Below are positions 20,044-38,059 of a stretch of 44,587 bases of DNA, one piece after another; the first letter of the stretch is position 1; each line of letters starts with the position of its first letter. The notes beneath the pieces are model-generated. The model ran no database searches and had not been told where the DNA came from. It was given only the letters and a program-made list of their open reading frames with translations. This DNA is from Ignavibacteriales bacterium (lineage in GTDB: Bacteria > Bacteroidota > Ignavibacteria > UBA10030 > UBA6906). The translations under genes and the position numbers were made by a program. The stretch spans positions 1 to 44,587 of the forward strand of contig JBBIRR010000034.1 in the NCBI GenBank assembly GCA_037441705.1, in the 5' to 3' direction.

Positions 20044-22254
20044 ATGCTTCAAGTGATGTCATACATTCCGACACTCCTTCGTCGGCTCATCGTCTTCAGC
20101 GGCGTTCTTGCTCTGCATGTTATCGCGGGGTCGGATGTTGCTGCGCAGACGAACGAGTCGTGTCTTACGTGCCACGCGGAACGCTCCTTGACGATGGAGA
20201 AGAAGGGCAAAACGATTTCGCTCTTTGTCGATGCGAAGGCGTTTGAACGATCGGCGCACGGACTGCTGGAGTGTGTGGCGTGCCATGAGAATTTCAAGCC
20301 GGATCAGATCCCGCATGCACGCCGCCTCGTGCCCGTTGCTTGCACTTCCTGCCATGCAGACGAGAAGTTCGTCAACTATGCACAGAGTGTCCACGGTACG
20401 CTGAAAGCGGGAAAGCCTGCTGCTGCCTGCACCGACTGCCATACGACGCACGCCATACAACACATCTCGGAGAAAGGAGTCGAGGAGAAGAAAGTCTTTG
20501 CCGAGCTGATCTGCGCCCGGTGTCATGCCGAGATAGAAACGAAGTATAAAGCATCCGATCACGGCATTGCGCTGCATGCGGGAGTGAAAGGCGCGCCGAC
20601 CTGTATTGATTGCCACGGCGAACACGAAGTGGTCTCGTCCACCGTGGAAGCTGCGCAGACAAGCAGGAAGAATGAAGCGACAATGTGCCTGCACTGCCAT
20701 CTCGATAATGCAGAAGTCCGCGCACGGGTGGGGCCTTCGGCGAAGTTCATTGCGAGCTACGAAAACAGCGTGCATGCGCAGGCGGTGCAGCACGGCAACG
20801 AAGCTGCCGCGACATGCACGGACTGCCACGGCAGTCATGAAATGAAAAAAGGCTCCAACCCCGAATCGAAAGTTTCGAAGAACCATATTGCGGAGACCTG
20901 CGGGCAATGCCACGGTGATGTGAAGGCGGAGTACGACGCCAGCAGTCACGGCAAGGCACTGCAGCGCGGCGTGCTTGCCTCGGCAACATGCACGGACTGC
21001 CACGGCGAGCATAATATTCTCTCGCCGACCGATCCCCGCTCGCCGGTTGCTCCGAAAAACGTCTCAGCGCAGGTCTGTTCGCCCTGCCACGCGTCGTTGA
21101 AGCTCACCGAGAAGTACGGTCTTGCCACGGATCGCTTCAAGAGCTTTGCCGATAGTTATCACGGTCTGGCGAGCCGTGCCGGTGCTGTGGAGGTGGCGAA
21201 CTGTGCAAGCTGCCACGGCGTGCATGACATCAAGCCCTCGACCGATCCGACGTCGCGCATTCACCCCGCGAATCTTGCAGCCACATGCGGCTCATGCCAT
21301 CCCGGCGCCAACGAAAACTTCACGAAGGGAAAGGTTCACGTGATTGCGACGGCGGGAGACGACAGGATTCTGTATTACGTCTCCACCGGCTACATCATTC
21401 TGATTGTTCTCACGATCGGGGGCATGGCGATCCACAACGTTCTTGATTTCATCAAGAGGGCGAAGAAGCAGCTCATGTACAGGCGCGGGCTGCTGGAGCG
21501 GAAGCATCACGAGCCGCGGTTGTATCTGCGCATGTCGTTGAACGAACGCGTGCAGCATGGGATTCTTGCCATCAGCTTCATGGTTCTCGTCCTCACAGGC
21601 TTCGCCCTCCGCTTCCCGGATGCATGGTGGGTGGCATCCATCCGCAATCTAATTCCGGCAGCATTCGAACTGCGCAGCCTGATGCACCGCATAGCAGGTC
21701 TGGCACTCATTGCTGTGAGTCTCTATCACGTCTATTATATCGCTGTTGTGCCGAGAGGGAAACAACTGTTGCGCGACATGCTGCCCGTTCAGAAGGATCT
21801 CACCGACCTGATCGGTTGCTTAAAATATTACCTCGGCCTCGCGCCCGAGAAGCCGAAGTTCGGCCGGTTCAGCTATATCGAAAAGGCGGAATACTGGGCG
21901 CTTATCTGGGGAACCGTCGTCATGGGGGCAACGGGCTTCATTCTCTGGTTCGACAACACCTTCATGGGCTTGCTGACGAAATTAGGATGGGACATCGCCC
22001 GCACGATTCATTACTACGAAGCGTGGCTTGCAACGCTCGCCATCCTTGTCTGGCATTTCTACTTCGTCATCTTCAACCCCGATTCCTATCCGTTGAATCT
22101 CGCGTTCTGGAAAGGAACCCTCACCGAAGAAGAAATGGAGGAGGAGCATCCGCTGGAGCTGCACGAAATCAGGCGGCGCGAAATGCTGGAACGGCTGGCG
22201 GAAGAAGAACGCGCAAAAGCTGAAAAAGAAGAAATCACCGCAAGTTCACAATGA
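20044..22254 (+). CDS. Fused 13-heme cytochrome c / cytochrome b inner-membrane quinol oxidoreductase (CbcL-like)
   Basis: Signal peptide, 13 CxxCH counted, TM helix, then FdnI-type diheme b domain (ERVQH..LTGF, MHR, GRFSYIEKAEYW, IHYYEA..WHFY); start 20044 or 20056. Confidence 0.85.
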   Translation: MLQVMSYIPTLLRRLIVFSGVLALHVIAGSDVAAQTNESCLTCHAERSLTMEKKGKTISLFVDAKAFERSAHGLLECVACHENFKPDQIPHARRLVPVACTSCHADEKFVNYAQSVHGTLKAGKPAAACTDCHTTHAIQHISEKGVEEKKVFAELICARCHAEIETKYKASDHGIALHAGVKGAPTCIDCHGEHEVVSSTVEAAQTSRKNEATMCLHCHLDNAEVRARVGPSAKFIASYENSVHAQAVQHGNEAAATCTDCHGSHEMKKGSNPESKVSKNHIAETCGQCHGDVKAEYDASSHGKALQRGVLASATCTDCHGEHNILSPTDPRSPVAPKNVSAQVCSPCHASLKLTEKYGLATDRFKSFADSYHGLASRAGAVEVANCASCHGVHDIKPSTDPTSRIHPANLAATCGSCHPGANENFTKGKVHVIATAGDDRILYYVSTGYIILIVLTIGGMAIHNVLDFIKRAKKQLMYRRGLLERKHHEPRLYLRMSLNERVQHGILAISFMVLVLTGFALRFPDAWWVASIRNLIPAAFELRSLMHRIAGLALIAVSLYHVYYIAVVPRGKQLLRDMLPVQKDLTDLIGCLKYYLGLAPEKPKFGRFSYIEKAEYWALIWGTVVMGATGFILWFDNTFMGLLTKLGWDIARTIHYYEAWLATLAILVWHFYFVIFNPDSYPLNLAFWKGTLTEEEMEEEHPLELHEIRRREMLERLAEEERAKAEKEEITASSQ

Positions 22255-24263
22255 AGCGATACGCGCGACACGTCGGATGGATTCTAGCGGGAACATTCCT
22301 CGCCGCCGCATCTCTCCCGGCACAGGAGAATGCAGACTGCATGCTCTGTCACGGCGACCGAACGCAGATGGGAAAGCGGCAGGGGAAGACAATCTCCGTG
22401 TTTGTGAATGAGAAGAAGTTCGCCGCGTCGGTCCATGGCACCGTCCCGTGCGTTGGGTGTCATAGCGATCTCGCGGGACAAGAATTCCCGCATGCAGAAG
22501 ATCTTGCTGCCGTGGATTGCGGAACGTGTCATGCCGAGCAGCAGGAACAGCATGCAAAATCGCTGCACGGCAAAGCGATCCGCCGCGGCGATCCATTGGC
22601 GCCGCAGTGCAAGGATTGCCATGGTACGCACGACATTCTCCCGCGGAACGATCCGAACTCTCAAGTTGCGGCGCTGAAGGTGCCGTTCCTCTGCGGCAAG
22701 TGTCATCAGGAAGGAACGCCGGTAATGCGTCAACGGGAGATTCATCAGGATCACATCCTTGAGAATTTCTCGGAGAGTATTCACGGCGAAGGGTTGTTGA
22801 GAAAGGGGTTGATTGTTGCACCGCACTGCGCCTCGTGCCACACCGCCCATTCCATTCTGCCGCACACCGATCCGAACTCGTCCATTGCACGACGCAACAT
22901 CGCCGCCACGTGCACGAAGTGTCATGCACAGATCGAGACGGTGCATCGGAAAGTGATTCGCGGCGAGTTGTGGGAGAAGCAGGAACACGTCCTGCCCGCA
23001 TGCGTGGACTGCCATCAGCCGCACAAGATTCGGAAAGTGTACTACACGCAGGGCATGGCCGATGCGGATTGCATGCGCTGCCACGACGATCCGCAGGTGA
23101 AGGCCTCGAAGGATGGCCGCTCGCTATTTGTGGACTTCGATGAAGTAAAGCGCTCACGCCATGCGAAGATCGCCTGCAGTCAGTGCCATGCCGAAGTCAA
23201 CGCCTCGAAGGTGAGGCCGTGTGAGTCCATCGTGAACAAGGTGGATTGCAGTTCATGTCATGCGGAGATTGCCCAGCAGTTCAATCAAAGCATGCACGGC
23301 GAGCTTGTTGCAAAGAACGACCCGAACGGGCCGACATGCAAGGAGTGCCACGGCACGCACGGCACGCGGGGAAAGCGCGAACCGACCTCTCCGACGTTTG
23401 CCACGAACATCCCCAAGCTGTGTGCCCGCTGCCACCGCGAAGGAGAGAAAGCGGCTGTTCGCTACACCGGTTCAGAACGTGACATCATCAACCATTACGT
23501 AGAAAGCATTCACGGCAAAGGGCTGATGAAGAGCGGCCTGACGGTAACGGCCACGTGCACGAATTGCCATACGGCGCATCAAGTTCTGCCGAAGAAAAAT
23601 CCGCAGTCGAGCGTGAACCCGCAGAACGTTCCGCAGACGTGCGGCCAGTGTCATCACGGCATCCAGGAACAGTTTGAGCAAAGCATTCATCATGTGAAGC
23701 TTGGCAAGACGGATAAACCGCTGCCCGTGTGCAGCGACTGCCATAGTGCGCACACCATTCAGCGCGCCGACGCCGAAGGCTTCAAGCTCGACATCATGAA
23801 TAAGTGCGGACGCTGCCACGAACCGATTGCCAGGACGTACTTCGAGACATATCACGGCAAAGTATCGCAGCTGGGCTACACGAAGACGGCCAAGTGCTAC
23901 GACTGTCACGGCGCGCATGATATTCTTCCGGTTGCCGATCCGCGCTCGCATCTCAGCAGAGAGAACGTCGTGGCAACATGCCAGAAGTGTCACCCCGGCG
24001 CAACGCGTCGCTTCGCCGGCTACCTGACGCATGCTACGCACCACGATCCGGAAAAATATCCGTTCCTGTTCTGGACATTTTGGGGCATGACGGGGTTGCT
24101 GATCGGGACGTTTGTCTTCGGCGGCGTGCACACGCTGCTGTGGCTTCCGCGCGCCTTGCAGATGCGACGCGAACTGAAACACAAAACCGATCGTCGCCCC
24201 GAACAGCTTCGCATGCAGAAGTCGCCACCTTCATCGAACACACATGACGACAGAGCAGATTGA
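22251..24263 (+). CDS. 19-heme cytochrome c with C-terminal membrane anchor (c-part of a split CbcL-like complex)
   Basis: Signal peptide; 19 CxxCH counted; YLTHATHHDPEKYP then TM helix; ATGA overlap with the upstream stop. Confidence 0.88.
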   Translation: MKRYARHVGWILAGTFLAAASLPAQENADCMLCHGDRTQMGKRQGKTISVFVNEKKFAASVHGTVPCVGCHSDLAGQEFPHAEDLAAVDCGTCHAEQQEQHAKSLHGKAIRRGDPLAPQCKDCHGTHDILPRNDPNSQVAALKVPFLCGKCHQEGTPVMRQREIHQDHILENFSESIHGEGLLRKGLIVAPHCASCHTAHSILPHTDPNSSIARRNIAATCTKCHAQIETVHRKVIRGELWEKQEHVLPACVDCHQPHKIRKVYYTQGMADADCMRCHDDPQVKASKDGRSLFVDFDEVKRSRHAKIACSQCHAEVNASKVRPCESIVNKVDCSSCHAEIAQQFNQSMHGELVAKNDPNGPTCKECHGTHGTRGKREPTSPTFATNIPKLCARCHREGEKAAVRYTGSERDIINHYVESIHGKGLMKSGLTVTATCTNCHTAHQVLPKKNPQSSVNPQNVPQTCGQCHHGIQEQFEQSIHHVKLGKTDKPLPVCSDCHSAHTIQRADAEGFKLDIMNKCGRCHEPIARTYFETYHGKVSQLGYTKTAKCYDCHGAHDILPVADPRSHLSRENVVATCQKCHPGATRRFAGYLTHATHHDPEKYPFLFWTFWGMTGLLIGTFVFGGVHTLLWLPRALQMRRELKHKTDRRPEQLRMQKSPPSSNTHDDRAD

Positions 24264-25155
24264 ACATAAGGACGAACGCCCTGGCGTATCGGAGGCAGAG
24301 AGCCCGGCACCGGATGTTACCGCGTTCGGCGATAAACAGTACGAGCGCTTCACGCGTCTGCATCGGACCCTGCACATTCTCATGATCATCAGCTTCATGA
24401 GTCTCGCGCTGACCGGCATGACGTTGAAGTTTTCGTACACCGGGTGGGCGGTGATCCTGTCGCGGCTGTTCGGAGGATTCGAGAGCGCGGGCTATATCCA
24501 TCGCGTTGCCGCCGTGCTGATGCTGGGTTTGTTCGTGACCCATCTGTACGATCTCGTTCGGCGCAAGCGAACGGAATTCGGTTCATGGAAGGCTATGCTC
24601 TTCGGGCCTGATACAATGCTCTTCACCAAGAAAGACGTCCAGGACTTCATCGGCAACATCAAGTGGTTTTTGGGTAAAGGTCCTCGGCCTGCATACGGAC
24701 GGTGGACGTATTGGGAGAAGTTCGATTACTTCGCCGTGTTCTGGGGAATCTTCGTCATCGGTTCGACGGGGTTGATGTTGTGGTTCCCGGAGTTCTTCAC
24801 TCAATTCATTCCGGGATGGATGCTGAACGTGGCGACGATCATTCACAGCGACGAAGCGTTGCTGGCGGTCGGGTTCATCTTCACGGTCCATTTCTTCAAC
24901 ACGCACTTGCGCCCTGAAAAATTCCCGATGGACATCGTGGTCTTCACGGGGCGCATGGATCTCGACGAGTTGCAGCGGGATAAGCCGTTGGAGTACCAGG
25001 CGTTGGTCGAACGGGGGGAATTGGAGAAGCATCTGGTTGATCCGTACCCGCCGATCGTCATCAGAGCAGCGCGCATTTTCGGTTGGTGCGCGCTCACGAT
25101 CGGCTTCAGTATCGTCGTGTGGATCATTTATGCCATGGTGTTTGCTTATCGCTAA
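24244..25155 (+). CDS. Cytochrome b subunit (FdnI/Ni-hydrogenase b-type), b-part of the split CbcL-like complex
   Basis: RFTRLHRTLH, YIHR..TH, GRWTYWEKFDYFAVFWG and IIHSDEALLA..VHFFNTH; overlaps the upstream gene by 20 nt. Confidence 0.85.
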   Translation: MTTEQIEHKDERPGVSEAESPAPDVTAFGDKQYERFTRLHRTLHILMIISFMSLALTGMTLKFSYTGWAVILSRLFGGFESAGYIHRVAAVLMLGLFVTHLYDLVRRKRTEFGSWKAMLFGPDTMLFTKKDVQDFIGNIKWFLGKGPRPAYGRWTYWEKFDYFAVFWGIFVIGSTGLMLWFPEFFTQFIPGWMLNVATIIHSDEALLAVGFIFTVHFFNTHLRPEKFPMDIVVFTGRMDLDELQRDKPLEYQALVERGELEKHLVDPYPPIVIRAARIFGWCALTIGFSIVVWIIYAMVFAYR

Positions 25156-25211
25156 AGGGAGTAGTACATTGACGCCATCTGAGTGCATCCATACACATCG
25201 CCGTTGAAGAC

Positions 25212-26705
25212 ATGAAGCGACTCTTTCCGACATCCTTCTACAATATCGTTACCCTCGTGGGCGCGGCAATCGCCGGCGTGAGTTTCGGACTGATTGTATT
25301 CCTGGTTCTCTTAGAGACGCTTGCGCCGACGCCGAAGCCGTACATGGGCATCATCGCTTTCGTGATTCTTCCCGGCATCATGCTCATCGGTATCGCTGTT
25401 GCGATCGTCGGTATTATTCGCGAGCATCGTCGTGAGCGCGCCGGAAAACCGCACGGCATGCATCTGCCGCAGGTGGATTTGAACAACCCGCGCCATCGTC
25501 GGGCGGTGGTCCTGTTCTCGACGGGGACCATCCTCCTGTTGTTGTTCTCCGCGTTTGGCAGCTACAAAGCGTACGAACACACCGACTCCGATCAGTTTTG
25601 CGGTCAAACGTGCCACACGGTGATGGAGCCGGAGTTCACGGCGTATCAGTACTCGCCGCATGCGCGCGTTGGGTGCGTGCAGTGTCATATCGGTCCGGGC
25701 GCGGATTGGTTTGTGCGGTCGAAGATCTCAGGCTCGTATCAGGTCTATGCCACGACGTTCAACAAGTTTCCGCGTCCCATCCCCACCCCGATCGAGAATC
25801 TGCGTCCGGCACAGGAGACGTGCGAGCAATGCCACTGGCCCAAACATTTCTTCAGCGAGAAGCTGCATACGAATACCTATTATCTCTCCGACGAGCAGAA
25901 CACAAAGTGGACGCTCAACCTGCTGATGAAAATCGGTGGCGGCAATGTGGAAGCCGGCCCGACCTCCGGCATTCACTGGCACATGAACATTGCCAACGAG
26001 GTCACCTACGTTGCCAGCGACTCGCAGCGCCAGGTGATTCCCTGGGTGCAGGTGAAACATGCCGATGGCAGAGTGGAGGTCTATCGCAGCACCGAGACCG
26101 CGTTGAGTGACGAAGAGCTTGCGGCGTTCAAGAAGCGTCGGATGGATTGCATTGACTGTCACAATCGACCGACGCATATCTATCATCCGCCTGCCCGATC
26201 GGTCAATCACGTCATGTCGTTGGGATGGATTGATCCGACGCTGCCGAATGTGAAGCAGGTTGCAGTTCAGGCGCTGGAAACTCCCTACAGCACGAAACAG
26301 GCCGCCCTCGATAGTATCAGGATTGTGATCGACGAATACTACAAAACGATGTATCCCGCCGTGGCCGACACACGCCGATCGGCCATCGAGCGCACCATCG
26401 CCGAAGTGCAGAAGATCTACAGCCGCAACTACTTCCCCGAGATGCGCGTCAGCTGGAAGCAGTATCCGGACAATATCGGGCATCTGTACTATAAGGGATG
26501 TTTTCGCTGCCACGACGATAAGCACGTCTCCGAGAGCGGCAAGGTGCTCACACGCGACTGTAACAGCTGCCACACGATTCTTGCGCAGCAATTTGAGAAA
26601 GAGAAACTGCGGATCGCCCTCGGTGGGGTGGAGTACAGGCACCCGACCGACATCGGGGACGCGTGGAAAGAGATGAACTGCAGCGAGTGTCATAATCCAC
26701 AATAA
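25212..26705 (+). CDS. NapC/NirT-family membrane heptaheme cytochrome, ImcH-like
   Basis: Three N-terminal TM helices; FCGQTCH (CX3CH) plus 6 CxxCH; SPHARVGCVQCHIGPGADWFVRSKISG and LRPAQETCEQCHWP motifs. Confidence 0.82.
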   Translation: MKRLFPTSFYNIVTLVGAAIAGVSFGLIVFLVLLETLAPTPKPYMGIIAFVILPGIMLIGIAVAIVGIIREHRRERAGKPHGMHLPQVDLNNPRHRRAVVLFSTGTILLLLFSAFGSYKAYEHTDSDQFCGQTCHTVMEPEFTAYQYSPHARVGCVQCHIGPGADWFVRSKISGSYQVYATTFNKFPRPIPTPIENLRPAQETCEQCHWPKHFFSEKLHTNTYYLSDEQNTKWTLNLLMKIGGGNVEAGPTSGIHWHMNIANEVTYVASDSQRQVIPWVQVKHADGRVEVYRSTETALSDEELAAFKKRRMDCIDCHNRPTHIYHPPARSVNHVMSLGWIDPTLPNVKQVAVQALETPYSTKQAALDSIRIVIDEYYKTMYPAVADTRRSAIERTIAEVQKIYSRNYFPEMRVSWKQYPDNIGHLYYKGCFRCHDDKHVSESGKVLTRDCNSCHTILAQQFEKEKLRIALGGVEYRHPTDIGDAWKEMNCSECHNPQ

Positions 26706-26726
26706 CGGTCAATCTTAGGATATTGG

Positions 26727-27467
26727 ATGAAGAGATTTCTGCACGCCATACCTGAGTCGTTGCGACGCCTGGTCGTTGTCTTCCTTCTGATGGTGGGCGG
26801 GTTTGTTCTGGTGAGAACGATGCTGCCATCGGAACTGAAGGACAATGCTCTTCACGTGCAGGCGACCATCGAACGGGAGCTGGCCAAACCCATCAAGCAC
26901 ACCGGATCAGAAGTCTGTGCAGATTGCCATGAAGAGTATGTCGTGAAGAAGGGCGGGTATCACCGGAACCTCTCTTGTGAAACCTGCCACGGCCCTGCGA
27001 GAGAACACACAGAGAATCCCGGTGAATCGAAGCCCACGCTGCCACGAATGCGCGAGTTCTGTGTGCGGTGCCATGCCTTCAATCCGTCGCGGCCGACAGG
27101 ATTTCCGCAGATCAACCCTGCCGCGCACAACCCACTGAAGCCGTGCGTCACATGCCATAACCCGCATGATCCCAAACCGCCAACGGTGCCCCAGGAATGT
27201 CAGGCTTGCCATGCCCAGATCGCGCGGACAAAAGCAGTCTCGCCTCACGTGGCTCTGGAGTGCACGACGTGCCATAGCGTTCCGCAGCAACACAAGATCA
27301 CGCCACGAGCAGTTCTCGCAACCATCCCTTCCGAGCGAGAGTTTTGCGGGAAGTGTCACGGCTTAGAATCGCCGGTCAAGGAAACTCCCAAAGTGGACAT
27401 AACGAAGCATGGCGAGAAATATCTCTGTTGGCAATGTCATTACCCGCATATGCCGGAGGTGCACTGA
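26727..27467 (+). CDS. Membrane-anchored octaheme cytochrome c (partner of the 4Fe-4S/NrfD module)
   Basis: N-terminal TM helix; 8 CxxCH counted. Confidence 0.85.
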   Translation: MKRFLHAIPESLRRLVVVFLLMVGGFVLVRTMLPSELKDNALHVQATIERELAKPIKHTGSEVCADCHEEYVVKKGGYHRNLSCETCHGPAREHTENPGESKPTLPRMREFCVRCHAFNPSRPTGFPQINPAAHNPLKPCVTCHNPHDPKPPTVPQECQACHAQIARTKAVSPHVALECTTCHSVPQQHKITPRAVLATIPSEREFCGKCHGLESPVKETPKVDITKHGEKYLCWQCHYPHMPEVH

Positions 27468-27469
27468 GT

Positions 27470-28210
27470 ATGGAACGGAGGACATTCGTCAAAAAACTTG
27501 CTGCCCTTCTTGCCCCTGCGACAGCCCTGGGCTTTGTGTTCAAGCGTGCCCGGGCAGAGACCACCGACTATGATCCGTCGAAGCACTACTACGGAATGGG
27601 AATTCAGGTTGACAGGTGCATAGGCTGTGGGCGCTGCGTCGAAGCGTGCAAAGATGAGAATGGTGTGTCGAAAGATCCTTTTTACTTCCGCACGTGGGTC
27701 GAGCGGTATACCATCAAGGAAGATGGTGAGGTCATCGTCGAAAATATTGACCCGAGAATCAGCGGCGCCAAAGAGTCCGTTGGCGACGGCGATGTGTTGA
27801 GAAGCTTTTTCGTCCCCAAGCTCTGCAACCAATGTGACAACCCGCCGTGTGTCCAGGTGTGCCCCGTGGGGGCGACCTTCAAAACCGAAGATGGCGTCGT
27901 GCTCGTTGATGATCAGCGGTGCATCGGCTGCCGCTACTGCATACAGGCCTGCCCGTATGGCGCTCGCTATCTCAATCCTGTGACGGAGACAGCCGACAAG
28001 TGCACGTTCTGCTATCATCGCATCACCAGGGGGATGCTGCCGGCGTGTGTGGAAGTGTGTCCGACCCAGGCCAGAATCTTTGGTGATGTGAGAAGCAGCG
28101 CCAGCCCGTTGACGCGCTTCAAGCGTATGAACAAGCTTCATGTGCTCAAACCCTCGTTGAACACGGAACCGAAGGTCTTCTACGCCAGTCTCGATGGAGA
28201 AGTACGATGA
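27470..28210 (+). CDS. Tat-exported 4x[4Fe-4S] protein (NrfC/DmsB family)
   Basis: MERRTFVK twin-arginine signal; CIGCGRCVEAC, CNQCDNPPCVQVCP, CIGCRYCIQACP and CTFC...CVEVCP. Confidence 0.92.
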   Translation: MERRTFVKKLAALLAPATALGFVFKRARAETTDYDPSKHYYGMGIQVDRCIGCGRCVEACKDENGVSKDPFYFRTWVERYTIKEDGEVIVENIDPRISGAKESVGDGDVLRSFFVPKLCNQCDNPPCVQVCPVGATFKTEDGVVLVDDQRCIGCRYCIQACPYGARYLNPVTETADKCTFCYHRITRGMLPACVEVCPTQARIFGDVRSSASPLTRFKRMNKLHVLKPSLNTEPKVFYASLDGEVR

Positions 28211-29925: not shown

Positions 29926-31001
29926 CAACACTCGCAAAAAAACTCTACGCCTGGGTTGACGAGCGTGTGCAGCTCGAAAGTCTCGTCCAGTTCATGGGAA
30001 AAAAGTACGTGCCCTTGCATCGGCACTCGGTGTGGTACTATTTCGGCGGCGTGACGCTGTTCCTGTTTCTCATTCAGGTGGTGACGGGCATCCTGCTGCT
30101 GCTCTATTACAAGAGCGGCGAGGAATTGGCATTCGAGAGTATTCATTTCATCATGTCGAAAGTGCAGTTCGGATGGTTGATCCGTTCGATTCACAGTTGG
30201 GCGGCGAACCTGTTCATCCTCGCGGCGATGGTTCACATGTTCAGTGTCTACTTCGAGAAAGCCTACCGCAAGCCGCGCGAGCTGACGTGGCTTACCGGCA
30301 TGCTGATGTTGTTCCTCGGCCTGGGCTTCGGGTTCAGCGGGTATCTCCTGCCGTGGAATGAGCTTGCCTTTTTTGCGACGAAAGTCGGAACCGACATCGC
30401 CGGTGTCGTGCCGATCATCGGGAAGCCCTTGATGATCTTTCTTCGCGGCGGCGAGGACGTGACGGGCGCGACGCTGTCCCGGTTCTTCGGGTTCCATGTT
30501 GCCGTCTTTCCCGGCCTCTTCACCCTGTTGCTGGGGATACACCTGATTCTTGTGCAGCGCCAGGGGATGAGCGAGCCGTTGGGGATGGAGGACGCTCCAC
30601 CTGCAGAGCGAAAAGCCATGCCCTTCTTTCCAAACTTTCTTTTGAGAGATCTGTTGTTGTGGTTGATTGTGCTGAACGTGTTGGCGATTCTTGCCGTCTT
30701 CTTTCCGTGGGAGTTAGGAAAGAAAGCCGATCCGTTTGCGCCGGCCCCGGCAGGCATCAAACCGGAGTGGTATTTTCTGTTCATGTTTCAAACGCTCAAA
30801 TTCCTTCCAGCTCATATCCTCTTTATTGATGGAGAGGTGTTGGGCGTGTTGCTCTTCGGCATCGCCGGCGCCCTCTGGATGCTGGTGCCGTTCTGGGACA
30901 GAAGAAGCTCGCGCGGCCAGCAGAATCGAACCATCACCTACATCGGTATTTTTGTGGTTGCCTACATCATCGTTCTGACCATACTCGGATGGGTGCTCTG
31001 A
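29922..31001 (+). CDS. Cytochrome b of the Rieske/cytb complex (b6 and subunit IV-like regions in one chain)
   Basis: [26 protein letters not shown]-x14-H and PEWY motif. Confidence 0.93.
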
Positions 31002-32497
31002 TGCGAACCTGGCTCGCTATACTTGTTTTGTCGGCAACGCTTTGTCTCGCGGGAGAAATCACGCTCGGCAGAGATAAATGCTTCGAGTGTCATGACGCGC
31101 TGGGCGATAAACCCTCCACACTGTTCAAGCGCGACGTGCATTTTGCCAAAGGCATTTCGTGCGCCGGCTGTCATGGAGGTGATCCGAAGGCCGAGGACAC
31201 GGAGCAGGCGATGAACAAAGCCGCGGGCTTCATCGGCGTACCGCGCGGCGATGAAATCTCCGAGCGTTGCGCGTCGTGCCACTCCGATTCGACCAAGATG
31301 CGTCGGTATGGATCGGAACTTTCTACCAATCAATGGGAACTGTTGCAGACGAGCGTGCACGGCAAGCTGGCCATCACCGGCAAAGAACACATTGCGCAAT
31401 GCACAACCTGCCATAATGCGCACGGGATCGTTTCCGTGAAGAGCCCCGCCTCACCGGTGTATCCTCTCAATGTCGTTAAGACGTGCGCTGCCTGCCATGC
31501 CAATGCTACGTACATGCGAACATATAATCCCTCTTTGCCCGTTGATCAGCTCGACAAGTATCGGACGAGCGTGCATGGGATGCGCAACGCCAAAGGCGAC
31601 CCGAAGGTCGCCGAATGTGCAAGCTGCCACGGGAATCACGATATCCGCTCGGCGAAAGATGTGAAGTCGAGTGTGTATCCGACAAATATCCCTGCGACAT
31701 GCAGCCGATGTCATAGCGATGCCGCGTATATGAAGGCATACAACATTCCCACGGATCAATACGAGAAGTTTACCAAGAGCGTGCATGGCGTTGCGTTGCT
31801 GCAGAAGAAAGACGTGGGGGCACCGTCGTGCAACGACTGTCACGGCAACCACGGGGCAACGCCGCCGGGCGTCGAGTCCATCTCCAAAGTCTGCGGGACG
31901 TGTCATGCGCTGAACGCGGACTTGTTCTCTACCAGTCCGCACAAGCAGGCATTCGATGCGCTGAAGCTTCCCGAGTGCGAAACCTGCCACGGCAATCATG
32001 AAATCGTTGCTGCCACGAACGAGCTTCTGGGAACTGCGCCCGAGGCGGTCTGCAGTCGCTGTCACAGTTCTACCGAGCGCCCGAAAGGCTTTGCTGCGGC
32101 GGCAACGATGCGCCGTCTGACGGATAGCCTCGAAGCGTCGGAGGCGCATGCACGCTCGCTCATCGAGGAGGCGGAACAAAAAGGAATGGAGGTGAGTGAG
32201 GCGAAGTTCAAATTGCGCGATGCGCGGCAAGCGCGGTTAGAAGCGCGCACGATGGTGCACGCGTTCAGTGAGGAGAAGTTCCGCGAGACCATCGGCAAAG
32301 GCCTGGTCACGGCGGCGTTCGTGGCGGCTGAAGCGCGCGCCGCGATTGATGAATATTTCTTCCGCCGCATCGGGCTGGGGATTTCCACCTTGATTATTAC
32401 GGTTCTTGTGGTTTCCTTGTACGTGTTCATTCGACGCCTGGAGCGTCGACAGCAGGAGGCAAAGAACGTCGTCCAATCCACCAAACCTCTCACATGA
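31001..32497 (+). CDS. 11-heme cytochrome c with C-terminal TM anchor (acceptor subunit of the Rieske/cytb complex)
   Basis: Signal peptide, 11 CxxCH counted, helical stalk and C-terminal TM helix; TGATG overlap with cytochrome b. Confidence 0.88.
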   Translation: MRTWLAILVLSATLCLAGEITLGRDKCFECHDALGDKPSTLFKRDVHFAKGISCAGCHGGDPKAEDTEQAMNKAAGFIGVPRGDEISERCASCHSDSTKMRRYGSELSTNQWELLQTSVHGKLAITGKEHIAQCTTCHNAHGIVSVKSPASPVYPLNVVKTCAACHANATYMRTYNPSLPVDQLDKYRTSVHGMRNAKGDPKVAECASCHGNHDIRSAKDVKSSVYPTNIPATCSRCHSDAAYMKAYNIPTDQYEKFTKSVHGVALLQKKDVGAPSCNDCHGNHGATPPGVESISKVCGTCHALNADLFSTSPHKQAFDALKLPECETCHGNHEIVAATNELLGTAPEAVCSRCHSSTERPKGFAAAATMRRLTDSLEASEAHARSLIEEAEQKGMEVSEAKFKLRDARQARLEARTMVHAFSEEKFRETIGKGLVTAAFVAAEARAAIDEYFFRRIGLGISTLIITVLVVSLYVFIRRLERRQQEAKNVVQSTKPLT

Positions 32498-32511
32498 AAA
32501 GGAGAATACCA

Positions 32512-33051
32512 ATGAGTAAGCTACGCGCTGCAATTCTCGGATTGATTCCTCTTCTTCTGCTTGCTTTCACGGCACAGGCGCAGAACAAGTTCACCGGTTC
32601 GAAGTTCTGCGCGGCATGCCATAAGGCAGGAAAAGGGGGAACGTCCTATGCAGTATGGGAGAAAACCGCTCACGCCAACGCGTACAAAACGCTGCTGGGT
32701 GAGGAGGCAAAAAAGATTGCCAAAGAAAAAGGGCTGACCGTTGCGCCGAACGAGGCGCCCGAATGCCTGAAGTGCCACGTCACCGGCGGCGGAACGGCGA
32801 AGAATGTTGAAGCGTCGTTCAAGAAGGAAGAAGGCGTGGGCTGCGAATCCTGCCACGGGGCAGCATCGGGCTACAAGATGATTCACAGCAAAGGTGACAA
32901 AGCCAAGAACAAAGAGGCAGGCATGATCATCCCGGCCAAGGATGAGAAGCTCTGCGTTACCTGCCACAACGATCAAAGCCCGACATTCAAGGGATTCAAG
33001 TTCGCCGAGGCGTGGCCCAAGATCGAGCATGCCAAGCCGGCAAAGAAGTAG
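32512..33051 (+). CDS. Soluble periplasmic tetraheme cytochrome (c554-like family)
   Basis: Signal peptide ending AQA; FTGSKFCAACH, W..TAHANAY, CLKCHVTG, GVGCESCHG and CVTCH; AAGGAG RBS. Confidence 0.85.
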   Translation: MSKLRAAILGLIPLLLLAFTAQAQNKFTGSKFCAACHKAGKGGTSYAVWEKTAHANAYKTLLGEEAKKIAKEKGLTVAPNEAPECLKCHVTGGGTAKNVEASFKKEEGVGCESCHGAASGYKMIHSKGDKAKNKEAGMIIPAKDEKLCVTCHNDQSPTFKGFKFAEAWPKIEHAKPAKK

Positions 33052-33140
33052 TACGAATTCAACAACATTCGGCGGCAGGTCTCGTTGAATCTTGGGCTGA
33101 GCAACCTGCCGCTGCTGATACCATCGTTGCGGTTCGTTGC

Positions 33141-33187
33141 TTCCCATTTGTCGGAATAGCAACGTGCCGTTCTCTTACAATTAGGAA
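33141..33187. promoter_or_regulatory. Second tandem copy of the 7-2-7 operator, upstream of the porin-cytochrome genes
   Basis: TTCCCAT-TT-GTCGGAA (33141) and CTCTTAC-AA-TTAGGAA (33172), 31-bp period; the latter shares TACAATTAGGAA exactly with 18738-18749. Confidence 0.55.
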
Positions 33188-33316
33188 ACCTGCGTGTCGC
33201 AAGGCGGACACGATCCGCGTTCCCGTTGCATTTTTCATCTCTATCCCACCCCACCTCGTGGCACACAGGGTGCCGAACCGTTATCGGGTTGTCTGTCACA
33301 ATTCATAGAGACCGCT

Positions 33317-34603
33317 ATGAACAAGCTTACTCGAATCCTCTTCGCATGCGCCGTAGCTGCGGGGGTTTCCCCAACACTCTCGTTCTCGCAGCTCATCAAC
33401 GGGCGATTGATCGGCTCGTTCTACACGTTTGAAAAGTTCGATACCGTTGGCGTTTCCAAGAAATTCGTTCGTGGTTTCCAATCGGCGCTGTTCGATGTTG
33501 CATATGCGGACTTCAGCATTCACACGCATTTCCAGGTTGCGGGCAATCTGCAATCGAAGCTCGATGAGGTTCCGGACTACCGCTTCTATTACCTCTATGC
33601 AAAGTGGAAGAACATTCTTGATGTTGCGGAGTTTTCATTTGGGAGGATGCCGTACTTCGCCGGTGTCGGCAACGGAACACTCGATGGGGGCCTGCTGAAG
33701 TTCTGGTGTCCCGAGAACAGGTTCAAGCTCACGCTCTACGGCGGACAGACCACGCCGTTGGAGTATGAGCTGAAAGATTGGAAGAAGCTGAAAAACAATT
33801 TCACGGTTGGAGGCCAGCTTCTCATCAACGCCATTGATAACGCGCGCATCGGCATCAGCTATGTGAATCGCCATCGCGAGCGGACGGGCTACTGGGCCAC
33901 ACGCGAAGACTCGCTGCTCAATCCCGTCCAGGTGTACGTCGTTCCGACCGTCGCGCAGGAGCAATACCTCAGCGGTGATGTCTCCTATCGGTACGAACGG
34001 CTCACCGCGTACGGACGGTACGATTACGATCTGAACTTCAAGAAAACGCAGCGCGGGCAGCTCGGCGTCCGTCTCGGTGTGATGGATGATCTCCATGTCA
34101 GCGCCGATTACATTCACCGCGAGCCGCGCGTCCTGTTCAATTCTTTCTTTTCTCTCTTCGATCTAAAAGCTGTGGATGAATTCGAGCTGGGGGCAGATTA
34201 TATGGTGACGCCTGAGTATCGAGCGTTTGCACGCGTGGCGTATGTGAAGTACTCGGGCGACAACAGCGTTCGCTATACCGCAGGTCTTGCCCATCGTTTT
34301 GTCGGACTGACCTATCGTGGAAGCTCCGGCTACGCGGGCGAGCTGACCAACCTCAGTCTGCAAGCCTTCTATCCTTTCATGGACAATATGCTGGTTCCAT
34401 CGTTGGGACTTGCCTATGTTTCGTACAAGTTCGACGCGTCCAGCGCGCGAGAGGATGGGTTTGCCGGAACGCTGGGTGCATCCGTGCGGCCGTTGCAGCA
34501 GCTGTCGTTCGATCTCCAGGGTCAGTATTTGACCAACAGAGTGGTGAAGAGCGACCTGCGGCTGTTCGGCAAAGTCAATTTCTGGTTTACCGAGCAATGG
34601 TAG
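33317..34603 (+). CDS. Outer-membrane beta-barrel porin of a porin-cytochrome conduit
   Basis: Signal peptide; alternating aromatic/polar strands throughout; C-terminal aromatic end (VNFWFTEQW); no heme motif; lies between multiheme genes. Confidence 0.75.
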   Translation: MNKLTRILFACAVAAGVSPTLSFSQLINGRLIGSFYTFEKFDTVGVSKKFVRGFQSALFDVAYADFSIHTHFQVAGNLQSKLDEVPDYRFYYLYAKWKNILDVAEFSFGRMPYFAGVGNGTLDGGLLKFWCPENRFKLTLYGGQTTPLEYELKDWKKLKNNFTVGGQLLINAIDNARIGISYVNRHRERTGYWATREDSLLNPVQVYVVPTVAQEQYLSGDVSYRYERLTAYGRYDYDLNFKKTQRGQLGVRLGVMDDLHVSADYIHREPRVLFNSFFSLFDLKAVDEFELGADYMVTPEYRAFARVAYVKYSGDNSVRYTAGLAHRFVGLTYRGSSGYAGELTNLSLQAFYPFMDNMLVPSLGLAYVSYKFDASSAREDGFAGTLGASVRPLQQLSFDLQGQYLTNRVVKSDLRLFGKVNFWFTEQW

Positions 34604-34649
34604 TCTTCTGTCGTTGAGCTCTCGTCATTAGACAGAAAAGGAATCTTCT

Positions 34650-35738
34650 ATGATACGTCGATCTGTAATACTCATGGGGATGCTTGCGGTCGGCATCGGA
34701 GCCGTGCTGATGTACGTTGACGCGCCGCTGCAAGCAGAAGGAACGCCGGGGGCTGCGGCAACGGCAGGCAATCCGACGCTGAAGTTCTCGCACAAATTCC
34801 ACATCACGGAAGCGGGTGTAACGGATTGTGCAACCTGCCACGCCGCGGCGAAGACGAGCACACGCTCGTCCGACCACCTTGCAGCCAACCACGATGCATG
34901 CGTGAGCTGCCACGAAGAACAGGTGAACGACGCAACGCAGGCGCAGTGCATCTACTGTCACACCGATCCTGCCAACATCCAGGCGGCACCGCCGACGAAG
35001 CGCGAGCTATTCTTCTCGCATGGGCAGCATCTTGCATTGACCGATGTGGAATGTACAACCTGCCATGCCGGTGTGGAAAAGGTAGATCAGGTGACGGCGG
35101 CAAACATGCCGGCGATGACGACCTGCACCACCTGCCACAACGACCAAAAGGCGACCAGCACGTGCGAGTCATGTCACACGAATTTCGCAACGCTGCTGCC
35201 GGTGGATCATCAGCGCTCGGATTTCGTTCGCAACCATCGCGATCTCACGCGGCTCGGCGGATTGACGACAGATTGCCAGACCTGCCACACGGAGACGTTC
35301 TGCCAGCAGTGTCACCTTCAGGCGGAGGTGAAGTCGTATTCGTACGGCAGGCAGCGCGATCTGACCACGGAGCCTGCGCACAAAACGTCGACCAAAGACT
35401 CTCCGAAACAAACGCTTCTGCAGAATGTACACGAGCTGAACTATCGGTTCACGCACGGCATTGATGCGAAAGCACGCCAGGCGGAATGCCAGTCGTGCCA
35501 CGCGGTGCAGACATTCTGCGCGGAGTGCCACAATGCAGGCGGCAACATTACGCAGATCAAATTCAAACCGGCCTCGCATTCGGTTCCCGGCTTCACGACA
35601 CTGGGTCGGGGATCGGGCGGCGGTTTGCATGCCGAGGAGGCGCGGCGCGATATGGAAAGCTGCATTGCCTGCCACGACGTCGAGGGTCAGGATCCGACAT
35701 GCATGACGTGCCATCTCGACAATGGCCGCGTTCGGTAG
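34650..35738 (+). CDS. Periplasmic dodecaheme cytochrome c (c3/c7-like FSH repeats)
   Basis: N-terminal hydrophobic signal; FSHKFH and FSHGQH motifs; 12 CxxCH counted. Confidence 0.88.
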   Translation: MIRRSVILMGMLAVGIGAVLMYVDAPLQAEGTPGAAATAGNPTLKFSHKFHITEAGVTDCATCHAAAKTSTRSSDHLAANHDACVSCHEEQVNDATQAQCIYCHTDPANIQAAPPTKRELFFSHGQHLALTDVECTTCHAGVEKVDQVTAANMPAMTTCTTCHNDQKATSTCESCHTNFATLLPVDHQRSDFVRNHRDLTRLGGLTTDCQTCHTETFCQQCHLQAEVKSYSYGRQRDLTTEPAHKTSTKDSPKQTLLQNVHELNYRFTHGIDAKARQAECQSCHAVQTFCAECHNAGGNITQIKFKPASHSVPGFTTLGRGSGGGLHAEEARRDMESCIACHDVEGQDPTCMTCHLDNGRVR

Positions 35739-35791
35739 AGTGTATGATCAGAACGAACTATAGACAAGTCGCATCACAAGGAGACATTGCC

Positions 35792-36952
35792 ATGAAGAAA
35801 TCACACACACCCTTTGCCATGCTTGCCGTGCTGGTGGTGACGGCGATCGTGCTGTTCGGTTGCGAAGGTCCGCAGGGGCCGGCCGGGAAAGACGGCAAGG
35901 ATGGCCAGACCGGCGTGCTCAACCTCGAAGGGTTCGCGCCCGGCATCAATTGCGGGAGCTGCCACAATCCCGATATTGATACAACATACTACCTCTGGGC
36001 ACGACGCTATCAGTGGGAGCGCTCGCTGCACGCGTACGGTGGCGACTTAGAACGCAACGGGCCGAATTGCGCGGGCTGCCACACGACCGAGGGTTTCATC
36101 GAGCGATGGAAGAATAATTGGGCGACGCAAGTTGTGGGAGCGAAGGACAACCCCAGCCCGCCCGGATGCTTTGCCTGCCACTCACCGCACTCTCGCGGCA
36201 ATTTCACGCGTCGCGATACCACGCCTGTGACCATAGCCTCCTTCATTCAGGGAGTGCCTGATGCGACGTTCGATTACGGCAACGGCAACATCTGCGTGCG
36301 ATGCCATCAAACCCGTACCGCAAGCCCGATGACGCCAAAGCCCGATCCGACAAAGACCGCGCCGACCGATACCATTACGATCACCTCCAATCGCTGGTAT
36401 CCGCATTATGGTGTGCAGGGACAAATGTTGATGGGAACCGGCGGGTTCCAATTCCAGGGCTACAATTATCGCGGCAACTCCAATCACACAACGAACGCCA
36501 CCATCAGGCAGGAAGGGTGCCCGGCCTGTCACATGGCATCGCAAGTGTATCCGCCCGATCTTGGGACCGGGCGCGGCGGTGGACACACAATGAAGATTCG
36601 CTACTCCTCGGACGAAACAAACTCCGATACACTCTTCGTCCTTTCGGGATGCAATCAAAGCGGCTGCCACGGAGCCGGCGGCTTCACCAAGGCATCGTTG
36701 CTTGCAGCCGAGCAAGCGATCGAGGATTCGCTGCATGCGCTGGAGACGTTGCTCATCCAAAGAGGGTGGCTCACAACGTCCGGCTTGGTCAATGCCAGCA
36801 CGAGTCGTCCGTTGAAGATCGCCCCGGCGGCGAAGGCGGGTGCGTTGTACAACTACCTTTTCATCGAGCACGATGCCAGCCGCGGCATACACAACACGAA
36901 GTACACACAGGATTTGCTCAATTCATCGCTGCAGGCGTTGAGAACACCATGA
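35792..36952 (+). CDS. Lipoprotein multiheme cytochrome c (5 CxxCH + 1 CX4CH) with short collagen-like linker
   Basis: AAGGAG RBS, lipobox LFGC, GPQGPAGKDGKDG; CAGCHTTEGF; CNQSGCH; C-terminal YNY..IEHD.SRGIHN..Y..LL reminiscent of OmcB-type cytochromes. Confidence 0.82.
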   Translation: MKKSHTPFAMLAVLVVTAIVLFGCEGPQGPAGKDGKDGQTGVLNLEGFAPGINCGSCHNPDIDTTYYLWARRYQWERSLHAYGGDLERNGPNCAGCHTTEGFIERWKNNWATQVVGAKDNPSPPGCFACHSPHSRGNFTRRDTTPVTIASFIQGVPDATFDYGNGNICVRCHQTRTASPMTPKPDPTKTAPTDTITITSNRWYPHYGVQGQMLMGTGGFQFQGYNYRGNSNHTTNATIRQEGCPACHMASQVYPPDLGTGRGGGHTMKIRYSSDETNSDTLFVLSGCNQSGCHGAGGFTKASLLAAEQAIEDSLHALETLLIQRGWLTTSGLVNASTSRPLKIAPAAKAGALYNYLFIEHDASRGIHNTKYTQDLLNSSLQALRTP

Positions 36953-36965
36953 CATGGTGACGACT

Positions 36966-38033
36966 ATGAAAGCGTTCATGAGGTTGACACTCATCTTCAT
37001 CGGTACAGCCGCGCTGATCGGCGGCTGTACGAAACTCAAGGACGACTTGCCGCAGCCCATCGAGCCGGGGGCGCAGGTGCATCTGCCAAGCTGGGTGGAC
37101 ACTGCTTCGGCGAACTTTCACGGCAAGGTCCTGAAAACCTCCGCGGTCGATGTGCAGACGTGTCTGGTCTGCCACGGCAGCGATTACAACGGCGGCACAT
37201 CCCGCGTTTCGTGCATCACGTGCCATAACGCCGAAGGCGCGAACATCCACGGTCGTGGATGGGAAGATCCGTCCTCGGCCAACTTTCACGGCAAAGCAAT
37301 TGCTGCTGCGAATTGGGATATGCGTCCGTGCCAGCCCTGCCACGGCACACGGTACACGGGGGGCAGCACGCCTGTTCCGTGCACGACGTGTCATAACCAG
37401 CCAGGCGGACCCGAGAACTGCGCGACATGTCATGGCTCCACGAATCCCGCTCCGCCGCGCGATCTTCATGGCAACACCGCACGCGGCATGCGCGGCGTGG
37501 GAGCGCATCAAGCGCATGTGGCGGGAACGTCCCTCGCAGCCCCGATGTTCTGCCACCAGTGTCACACCGTGCCCGGCGCGATCTACGAGCCGACACATAT
37601 CGATCAGACACCCAACGCGGAAGTTGTGATGTCCGCGCTTGCAAGTACAGTAACCAACGAACCGGGCACCACCACCTACAGCCCGACGCTTCCGTTGTTT
37701 TCTCCCAACCCGACGTATGACGCCGGCACGCTCTCGTGCGCATCCACGTATTGTCACGGCAACTTCAAGAACGGTAACCCGAACTTCGTGCCGAGTTGGA
37801 CGGATACCACCGGGGCGGCAATGGCGTGCGGAACCTGCCACGGCGACGTGACCAAACCGACGCTCGCCGAGAAGGCGCTTCCCAAGACTTCGGCGCAAGG
37901 GGGAACGCATCCCAACGTTCTGACCTGTTCTGCCTGTCATGCCGGCATTGTGGATGCCAATGCACGCATCATTGATCCGGTCAGACATATCAACGGCAAG
38001 TTGAACGCGTTCGGACAGGAGTGGGATTTCTAA
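36966..38033 (+). CDS. Lipoprotein multiheme cytochrome c with CxxxxCH...CxxCH domain (8 CxxCH + 1 CX4CH)
   Basis: Lipobox IGGC; CASTYCHG...W...CGTCHG motif of the Geobacter-type C4xC_C2xCH family; GAHQAH; HING end motif; start 36954 or 36966. Confidence 0.82.
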   Translation: MKAFMRLTLIFIGTAALIGGCTKLKDDLPQPIEPGAQVHLPSWVDTASANFHGKVLKTSAVDVQTCLVCHGSDYNGGTSRVSCITCHNAEGANIHGRGWEDPSSANFHGKAIAAANWDMRPCQPCHGTRYTGGSTPVPCTTCHNQPGGPENCATCHGSTNPAPPRDLHGNTARGMRGVGAHQAHVAGTSLAAPMFCHQCHTVPGAIYEPTHIDQTPNAEVVMSALASTVTNEPGTTTYSPTLPLFSPNPTYDAGTLSCASTYCHGNFKNGNPNFVPSWTDTTGAAMACGTCHGDVTKPTLAEKALPKTSAQGGTHPNVLTCSACHAGIVDANARIIDPVRHINGKLNAFGQEWDF

Positions 38034-38059
38034 GGGAGAGGAACACGTTGCAATGTCGG

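Follow-up and report, generated by a model that had tools for sequence, protein, structure and literature searches.

A cluster linking five predicted quinol-oxidizing modules to a porin-cytochrome conduit in an Ignavibacteriales bacterium

The window analyzed here is the whole of a 44,587-nucleotide contig (JBBIRR010000034.1, C34) from the genome of an Ignavibacteriales bacterium (GCA_037441705.1; 3.83 Mb, completeness rating 100%). Between positions 20044 and 38033 it carries 15 open reading frames (ORFs), g1 to g15, all on the + strand and predicted to encode five quinol-oxidizing membrane modules, a soluble tetraheme cytochrome, and a porin-cytochrome conduit. A first-pass annotation had counted 15 genes in one orientation and nine multiheme cytochromes carrying 89 heme motifs, and these counts were reproduced from the ORFs; the 89 motifs comprise 86 CxxCH (13 in g1, 19 in g2, 6 in g4, 8 in g5, 11 in g10, 4 in g11, 12 in g13, 5 in g14, and 8 in g15) and three atypical ones, a CX3CH in g4 and a CX4CH in each of g14 and g15. 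The membrane-bound modules account for 58 motifs, soluble g11 for 4, and the conduit for 27. The overlapping codons taken as signs of translational coupling are all present (ATGA at 22251, 28207, and 29922; TGATG at 31001), the g2 and g3 reading frames share 20 nt, and the cluster is indeed closed by one strong intrinsic terminator (38058-38094, + strand), a 17-pair hairpin with a T run that is the longest among 25 terminator-like sites between 19300 and 38800. An Rfam scan of the window gave no matches. The cluster is not a chance assembly, because it holds 86 of the 267 CxxCH motifs of the genome (33 ORFs with at least two motifs counted) and is kept in relatives. The nearest named homologs of its proteins are, by record title, from Ignavibacteriae and Bacteroidota metagenome-assembled genomes (MAGs), which agrees with the Ignavibacteria-type host of the Fibrobacteres-Chlorobi-Bacteroidetes group proposed earlier. 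The module identities given in that annotation (ImcH-like, two CbcL-like, NrfD-type, Rieske/cytochrome b, and porin-cytochrome conduit) also stand, as detailed below.

CbcL and ImcH family membership was judged by the heme motif positions published in the supplement of PMC6295460. g1 (20044-22254) encodes a fused cytochrome bc in which 13 c-type heme motifs and an FdnI-type cytochrome b domain (Pfam Ni_hydr_CYTB, 1.8e-16) share one chain, the layout of the CbcL/MtrH/MtoC family (3-23 CxxCH with an FdnI-like diheme cytochrome b). Its membrane histidines are at residues 505, 548, 562, 656, and 671, and a simple scan finds five hydrophobic segments past residue 450, about six helices being expected of the family. 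The next two genes overlap and divide this layout between them, g2 (22251-24263) encoding a 19-heme cytochrome c with one C-terminal membrane anchor, as in CbcA, and g3 (24244-25155) a diheme cytochrome b, as in CbcB (Pfam Ni_hydr_CYTB, 4.8e-9); this is the CbcBA arrangement of a separate diheme b subunit and a C-terminally anchored multiheme c subunit. The pair represents the c and b halves of a split CbcL-family protein whose single-chain form is found in the related genomes G109 and G233. g2 is 65% identical to the fused 927-aa protein of G109, g3 is 73% identical to the C terminus of that fusion and 32% identical to g1, and all 19 g2 motifs lie +5 to +7 relative to those of Caldithrix Cabys_319, a protein on the published CbcL list. 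The b domains of g1 and g3 fall into separate clades with support of 100/100 in a 44-row tree, which is unrooted and carries a long-branch warning. Because the b domains are 32% identical and belong to two fully supported clades, g1 and g2+g3 are old paralogs; a recent duplication as their source was ruled out by the 27-32% identity and the two deep clades. On these signatures we class them as two CbcL-family paralogs, the second one split. The FdnI-type diheme b and multiheme c are common to them and to Geobacter sulfurreducens CbcL (Cbc1) and CbcBA (Cbc5), whereas the heme number is 13 and 19 in the host proteins, against 9 and 7 in Geobacter, and the gene order is c then b. The split, C-terminally anchored layout of g2+g3 is that of CbcA and CbcB, and its predicted sigma-54 control recalls that described for cbcBA (10.1101/2021.04.15.440034).

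g4 (25212-26705) encodes a 497-aa protein, within the 495-519 aa of ImcH proteins, with three N-terminal membrane helices (residues 15-33, 47-65, and 98-116; 13-35, 45-67, and 100-122 in ImcH) and one CX3CH that adjoins the membrane domain and is followed by the six CxxCH motifs already counted. All seven motifs lie within -2 to +4 of their positions in G. sulfurreducens ImcH (GSU3259), in keeping with ImcH spacing. Residues D125, K171, and F186 align with the conserved E127, K173, and Y188 close to heme 1 of ImcH only if an offset of +2 is assumed; among 148 aligned homologs, K171 is invariant, the D125 position is D or E in all, and the F186 position is Y in 114 and F in 33. By the published signature, g4 is an ImcH homolog, resembling GSU3259 in length, helices, and motif positions. 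It differs in genomic setting: the host imcH lies inside a conduit cluster, whereas the 2018 survey found no mtrAB or mtoAB beside imcH (PMC6295460). Sequence searches of the PDB matched g4 to NrfH only and g1 to one cytochrome c.

The fourth module consists of g5 (26727-27467), a membrane-anchored octaheme cytochrome c with one N-terminal helix; g6 (27470-28210), a 4x[4Fe-4S] subunit of the TtrB/NrfC type with 16 cysteines and a twin-arginine-like N terminus (TtrB model 223 bits, below cut-off); and g7 (28207-29421), an NrfD-family quinone-binding membrane subunit (Pfam NrfD, 4.5e-42). An NrfD subunit together with a 4x[4Fe-4S] subunit is the core of NrfCD/Ttr-type complexes, but the locus contains octaheme g5 instead of a catalytic molybdoenzyme or NrfA partner, and the molybdopterin-family matches of the host genome are on other contigs. 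g5-g7 is an accessory module: a close ortholog of g7 was found in 14 of 121 genomes of the host's order and in none of seven same-genus genomes. The fifth module comprises g8 (29470-29925), a Rieske 2Fe-2S protein with both Cys/His boxes (Pfam Rieske, 3.6e-13); g9 (29922-31001), a cytochrome b with His 91, 105, 192, and 207 as heme ligands and PEWY at 281 (Pfam Cytochrome_B, 2.6e-48; ExtP model 201 bits, under the 290 cut-off); and g10 (31001-32497), an 11-heme cytochrome c with a C-terminal anchor. The Rieske boxes, four heme histidines, and PEWY motif are those of Rieske/cytochrome b complexes, and g10 stands in place of the monoheme cytochrome c1 or f; it follows g8-g9 in every neighborhood of the host's order that shows those genes far enough. 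The serine that is typical of ubiquinol-oxidizing proteins is absent from the second Rieske box of g8, which fits menaquinol; genes of the futalosine pathway to menaquinone are present in the host genome. In Geobacter, Cbc3 combines Rieske, cytochrome b, and multiheme proteins, and Cbc4 combines NrfD, Fe-S, and multiheme proteins. Cbc3 (cbcVWX), Cbc4 (cbcSTU), and Cbc6/Ext are separate quinone oxidoreductase clusters there (10.1101/2021.04.15.440034), whereas the modules likened to them here, by description and not by sequence, are adjacent.

Ahead of the conduit block lies g11 (32512-33051), a soluble c554-like tetraheme cytochrome (Pfam Cytochrome_C554, 8.2e-21) that is likely a periplasmic carrier; its counterpart lies directly 5' of the porin gene in Ignavibacterium and Ignavibacteriaceae loci. 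g12 (33317-34603) matched no Pfam or NCBIfam family model, and sequence and profile searches of the PDB returned nothing significant for it. A structural model built from a 103-row alignment, with a predicted local distance difference test score (pLDDT) of 96.6, is a confident all-β outer-membrane barrel of ~22 strands, without a plug and open enough to hold a cytochrome. Its best fold matches are the barrels of 22-strand TonB-dependent receptors (Z 20.6, root-mean-square deviation 4.6, 363 aligned residues, barrel part only), and MtrB follows with Z 17.1, 4.9, and 346; a solved Geobacter-type conduit porin was absent from the fold-match lists. In the model g12 is a wide pore, and the fold it shares with receptors and MtrB shows no function by itself. 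g13 (34650-35738) is a periplasmic cytochrome with 12 hemes in c7-type repeats, 3OV0 being its best solved relative (1.5e-27), and likely threads into the g12 pore. A complex prediction for the two, rated weak, scored 0.57 against 0.00 for the best control, with at least 59% of contacts common to the runs and a partner pLDDT of at least 61; in calibration, 116 of 157 solved pairs passed the acceptance mark, as did 2 of 215 mismatched pairs, and scores of 0.60 or less included 18 of the 157 solved pairs and both passing mismatches. g14 (35744-36952, start more likely at 35792) and g15 (36966-38033) are lipoprotein cytochromes. The lipobox-like Cys of g14 is conserved in its homologs, as is the lipobox of g15; g15 exceeds the TIGR01904 cut-off and is the candidate surface terminal cytochrome. 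Adjacent genes for a porin (g12), a periplasmic multiheme cytochrome (g13), and putative outer-membrane multiheme cytochromes (g14 and g15) are the composition expected of a porin-cytochrome conduit.

This conduit is of a published type. Ignavibacterium album IALB_1837-1840 is described as encoding a periplasmic cytochrome, a porin, a large periplasmic multiheme cytochrome, and an outer-membrane cytochrome with an atypical motif (PMC4245776), and three Ignavibacterium sp. loci (L016, L018, and L020) contain a series of tetraheme cytochrome, porin, 400-aa 14-heme protein, and lipoprotein cytochrome that fits the available account of IALB_1840-1837. Their products are 34-47% identical to g11-g13 and g15, with 36-40% between g13 and the 14-heme partner. 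The host differs in the 12 hemes of g13, the second lipoprotein g14, and the five attached quinol modules; the named Ignavibacterium loci have no quinol module adjoining the conduit. I. album is reported to be without a cytochrome b-Rieske complex (PMC3362086, in part), and others have reported ignavibacterial porins as OmbB-like. g14 was not seen after the conduit in the related genomes G037 and G229 or in most Ignavibacteriaceae loci.

Two groups of features extend the locus as first annotated: a 265-bp gap between g11 and g12 (33052-33316), where a hairpin and two palindromes accompany a sigma-54-like site, and a pair of conserved genes upstream of g1. The upstream region opens with two 16-bp palindromes 30 bp apart (18704-18719 and 18734-18749), predicted to be sigma-54 activator sites, whose 12-base core has only two exact matches in the 3.83-Mb genome (0.13 expected). 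They are followed by P1 (18853-18867, + strand), a sigma-54-type -24/-12-like element, and by usp (18906-19406, + strand), a universal stress protein gene (Pfam Usp, 1.5e-30) that is kept in L007, G037, and G229. A receiver-only response regulator-like protein (19430-19849, + strand; Pfam Response_reg 5.6e-5, below cut-off) comes next, with homologs adjoining the cluster in six related loci, and a weaker sigma-54-like element, P2 (19982-19996, + strand), precedes g1 here and in L007 and G037, though not in G229. The palindrome pair occupies the equivalent place in L007, G037, G229, and held-out G145. Within the g11-g12 gap, a hairpin without a U tail (33072-33112, + strand; -28.4 kcal/mol for an 84-nt stretch, z -1.9, 13 of 200 shuffles equally good) may mark a transcript end or act as a stabilizer; it precedes a second palindrome pair 31 bp apart (33141-33156 and 33172-33187), conserved in an alignment of L003, L005, L007, and L010, and P3 (33259-33273, + strand), a predicted internal promoter 58 bp 5' of the porin start.

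The scoring matrix for promoter sites was trained on 13 sites in six relatives, with the host left out, and was applied to 343 relaxed sigma-54-like sites. P1 ranked first, P3 second, and P2 seventh; one random anchor in 20,000 scored at least 27, as did 4 of the 2,591 anchors placed upstream of ORFs. The plain sigma-54 pattern occurs at background (15 matches, 13.9 expected), and a sigma-70 scan gave 6 sites with 8.9 expected; the sigma-54 sites are meaningful only because they are paired with palindromes and conserved. Sites ranked 3, 4, 5, 6, and 8 are followed in turn by a sulfhydrogenase-type NiFe hydrogenase operon and by genes for malic enzyme, hemN, a phosphoglycerate dehydrogenase-like protein, and ccmF, and a pyruvate:ferredoxin oxidoreductase site ranks 13 with a score near background; within this predicted regulon only hemN and pyruvate:ferredoxin oxidoreductase exceed curated cut-offs. 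In G037 a PAS-type kinase and an NtrC-type activator abut the cluster, their host orthologs (72% and 75% identical) lie on contig C23, with the NtrC-type gene at 27628-28980, and an RpoN-box ORF is on C11. The -24/-12 elements, paired palindromes, RpoN, and activator expected of enhancer-dependent sigma-54 promoters can thus all be predicted from motifs in this genome. Six of 13 held-out neighborhoods of the host's order have a similar site ahead of the conduit block, and no like site was detected in the Ignavibacterium or Ignavibacteriaceae loci. These features argue for at least two co-regulated transcription units behind two promoters with a common motif, with read-through beyond the weak hairpin after g11 possible. 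The single super-operon of the first-pass annotation is probably not what is transcribed, with a conserved promoter architecture before the porin gene and the main promoter 1.2 kb upstream of where that operon had been taken to start. Downstream of the cluster (38400-39242), a perfect sigma-54-like element at 38400, ranked 24 and without a strong palindrome pair, precedes a TonB-family gene that stays beside the cluster in L003, L004, L007, L009, and L019, though the conduit is plug-less. In relatives (L004, L007, L017, L023, L025, L027, and L039) the cluster is often followed by genes that resemble ccmF or genes of heme biosynthesis, the ccmF call there resting on the host ortholog.

The distribution of the cluster was surveyed in 201 genomes of the class and in 121 genomes of the host's order. 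Among the 201, the porin was matched in 125, imcH in 98, and both in 93; among the 121, the porin was matched in 95. Where both genes occur in the class set, they lie within 15 kb of each other in 18 of 21 genomes of the host's order, all on the same strand and including the host, vs. 3 of 72 in other orders, in which the genes are on separate contigs in 62 and far apart on one contig in 7; large contigs of G097, G451, G465, G493, and G498 separate them by at least 0.5 Mb. The physical link between quinol oxidases and conduit is supported and is unusual for the class. Twenty-two neighborhoods, picked partly for carrying NrfD, were inspected. All five modules and the conduit are also present in G037, G233, and G605, most neighborhoods have three or four modules, G369 has two (g1 and g4), and in G097 and G353 g1 and g4 occur without a porin nearby. 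Gene order varies, and the progression from inner membrane to outside that the first-pass annotation had read into the host order is not conserved, as relatives place the conduit first or move g11; in G229, G109, and G369, little sequence separates g11 from g12. Modular in make-up, the cluster is a feature of the whole order, and the host copy is among its fullest forms. Some loci carry further genes. In G037 (contig C2, L022/L023) an insert between the g10 and porin homologs has its own promoter-like site; its products are proteins with four and five hemes, a twin-arginine protein of 817 aa, an Fe-S protein, and a membrane protein, together a putative sixth quinol module that resembles alternative complex III in layout. 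L070/L071 (G089) and L075/L076 (G551) have extra genes for a 7-heme (~630 aa) and a 9-heme (~925 aa) protein between the quinol block and the porin. L011, from an MAG titled Acidobacteriota, has g1-, g11-, g12-, g13-, and g15-like genes in series and is either a reduced version outside the lineage or a mis-binned record.

The host genome encodes two heme-copper oxidase subunit I proteins, NosZ, NrfA, and many periplasmic reductases. Its clade II NosZ and its CoxI each adjoin a Rieske/cytochrome b module and NrfA adjoins NrfH; because these enzymes have adjacent donor modules of their own, the modules of the cluster may serve the conduit. RuBisCO and acetyl-CoA synthase were not found in the host genome by searches whose controls matched; in a search for ATP-citrate lyase, none of its controls matched. 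The oxidase on contig C29 was considered as an NO reductase and proved to be CoxI-like. Of four Rieske-type cytochrome b genes (contigs C2, C17, C29, and C34), one adjoins NosZ, another adjoins CoxI with an 8-heme partner, a third belongs to this cluster, and the fourth is on C17; an alternative complex III-like locus is on C30. Other cytochrome loci are scattered through the genome. On C10 an octaheme cytochrome (L045, 7406-8815, - strand) has a type IX secretion C-terminal sorting domain and is a candidate secreted cytochrome that the conduit could reduce; it lies near a second 8-heme gene, and both genes have weak sites of the same promoter motif with scores of 4-6, within background. A second large locus (C1, 216425-225174) has ORFs with 16, 34, and 20 CxxCH motifs that surround a flavin/Fe-S oxidoreductase and a 531-aa unknown protein. 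C21 (L046, 5329-17536) encodes a 1242-aa 10-heme LVIVD-repeat protein, an Fe-S protein with a cyclic nucleotide-binding domain, a second 10-heme protein, and FHA-domain proteins, and C12 (L047, 5398-15701) combines two NrfCD modules with a 13-heme cytochrome and with regulators that have glycine-cleavage H-like domains; a block like that of C12 adjoins the conduit cluster in G337 and G101. The ends of the window itself (149-2506 and 41067-44384) have a lower GC content, 46-48%, and ORFs resembling DNA methylase or restriction types.

We consider it reasonably probable that the cluster is a set of co-regulated genes for anaerobic, outward extracellular electron transfer. Under anoxia the PAS-type kinase and NtrC-type activator would switch on two sigma-54 units, usp to g11 for quinol oxidases and carrier and g12 to g15 for the conduit. 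Menaquinol would be oxidized by one of the five membrane modules (g1, g2+g3, g4, g5-g7, or g8-g10), and the electrons would pass along the periplasmic heme chains of that module to g11 or directly to g13, which within the g12 barrel would hand them to g15 and g14 at the surface for reduction of Fe or Mn oxide, humic matter, sulfur, an electrode, or a partner cell. Anaerobic export is favored because the common motif also precedes hemN, ccmF, and the hydrogenase operon, a predicted regulon that would provide heme and enzymes of anaerobic redox balance. The first-pass annotation had held that direction cannot be read from the sequence, but the predicted regulon and host gene content favor export. 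In Geobacter, ImcH has been shown to oxidize menaquinol (10.1101/2023.05.03.539133, in the part available), and the protein has so far been tied to quinol oxidation only (PMC6295460). A division of labor by redox potential would be an analogy to Geobacter, where ImcH acts above -0.1 V, CbcL below -0.1 V, and CbcBA below -0.21 V (10.1101/2021.04.15.440034), and the earlier label of a multi-potential toolkit goes beyond what sequence can reveal.

Several observations weigh against outward transfer through a dedicated cluster. The family assignments stand on published motif positions rather than on direct alignment with Geobacter sequences, and kinship among the genomes, together with the fragmented assemblies behind the 62 split cases, inflates the linkage contrast. 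Thirty-two of the 125 porin-bearing genomes gave no imcH match, so the conduit does not need ImcH, and quinol modules come and go independently of each other among relatives. In 7 of the 13 held-out neighborhoods no internal promoter was found. The strict Bacteroidetes export signal (PMC5080379, as excerpted) is absent from all 34 g15 homologs and all 15 g14 homologs, a loose start, C-[STQA]-[DE], being present in 27 of the 34. CbcL/MtoC homologs also occur in Fe(II) oxidizers, and the accessible text names no feature that separates the two directions (PMC6295460). Finally, PMC4245776 reports that I. album, with the same type of conduit, could not use oxides of Fe(III) or Mn(IV); Melioribacter roseus is cited as an Fe(III) reducer, and its 2013 description, cited second-hand, proposed quinol:acceptor modules for Fe(III) reduction.

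The gain, loss, and shuffling of modules, as in the patchy NrfD and the porin-free g1+g4 pairs, would also suit a periplasmic redox hub, in which independent cassettes under one anaerobic regulator feed a common heme pool that supplies NosZ, NrfA, and molybdoenzymes or stores charge, the conduit being a minor outlet and the NrfD and CbcL types perhaps running backward. The separate promoter of the conduit and the many periplasmic reductases fit such a hub as well, but we think it unlikely, given that NosZ, CoxI, and NrfA already have adjacent donors and that conduit linkage survives rearrangement in 18 of 21 genomes. Electron uptake from Fe(II), reduced humics, a cathode, or a partner cell, with the modules reducing quinone for respiration of O2, N2O, or nitrite, has terminal sinks available in the two oxidase genes, NosZ, and NrfA, and MtoC-type CbcL homologs do adjoin conduits in Fe(II) oxidizers; it is nevertheless rather improbable, ImcH not being known from metal oxidizers in the available text of PMC6295460, RuBisCO and acetyl-CoA synthase not having been found in the genome, and the predicted regulon looking anaerobic. 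We give very little credence to a single transcript of 18 kb that runs from g1 to the terminator and encodes a physically continuous wire built in gene order. Tight junctions inside each block, the presence of only one strong terminator, the near adjacency of g11 and g12 in three relatives, and the missing U tail of the hairpin are compatible with it, whereas the conserved promoter architectures in the g11-g12 gap and before usp and the differing gene order among relatives speak against it.

Every part of the cluster is of a known kind; its novelty is the combined wiring and testability, not a protein type. To call it an undescribed system, as had been proposed, is too strong, since the conduit type (PMC4245776), ImcH and CbcL homologs listed for Ignavibacteriae, and a multi-oxidase cluster in Rhodoferax ferrireducens (both PMC6295460) are in print. 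In the Rhodoferax mtr locus, two cymA and mtrH genes lie beside the conduit genes mtrABC and were proposed to serve different acceptors (PMC6295460); it differs in its Mtr-type conduit and in having CymA instead of ImcH, and the available text mentions no Rieske or NrfD module. The seven-gene Bacteroidetes_1 cluster, with matches in Ignavibacteriae (PMC8258643), and the peat clusters EET1-4, transcribed in situ (10.64898/2026.05.27.727921), likewise combine multiheme cytochromes with a barrel in uncultured lineages; they are likened here by description only, and their accounts, as available, describe no series of quinol modules. No published description of the present arrangement or its operator was found in a literature search that did not extend to gene-map figures (PMC4245776; PMC6295460 Figs. 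5 and 7; PMC7399161 Fig. 3), preprint supplements, or the 2013 M. roseus paper, and the arrangement goes without mention in the accessible parts of PMC5492636, PMC11475568, PMC10504345, and PMC9386147.

Anodes and Fe(III)-reducing sediments have repeatedly yielded enrichments of Ignavibacteria (PMC7399161 and PMC6137239, in part). The locus supplies candidates for each step from quinone to a known conduit, a route not set out in the literature examined, and it opens the questions of whether acceptor potential decides how co-expressed quinol oxidases sort electrons and what energy yield gains from the NrfD and Rieske modules, both of them poorly studied. The predicted operator and regulon would provide direct markers, as promoter reporters or metatranscript start sites, of when the pathway is switched on in uncultured cells. 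A bolder proposal, which we regard as possible but doubtful, is that the whole uncultured Ignavibacteria-type order respires extracellularly through a compact cassette with counterparts of nearly all Geobacter quinol oxidases, co-transcribed from one sigma-54 promoter. If this is true, the choice of oxidase would be made by redox gating at the protein level, unlike the separate induction of cbcBA in Geobacter, the cassette would amount to a potential ladder that occurs in nature, can be transplanted, and has a known operator, and the order would be the largest unrecognized group of extracellular respirers outside the Desulfobacterota and Proteobacteria.

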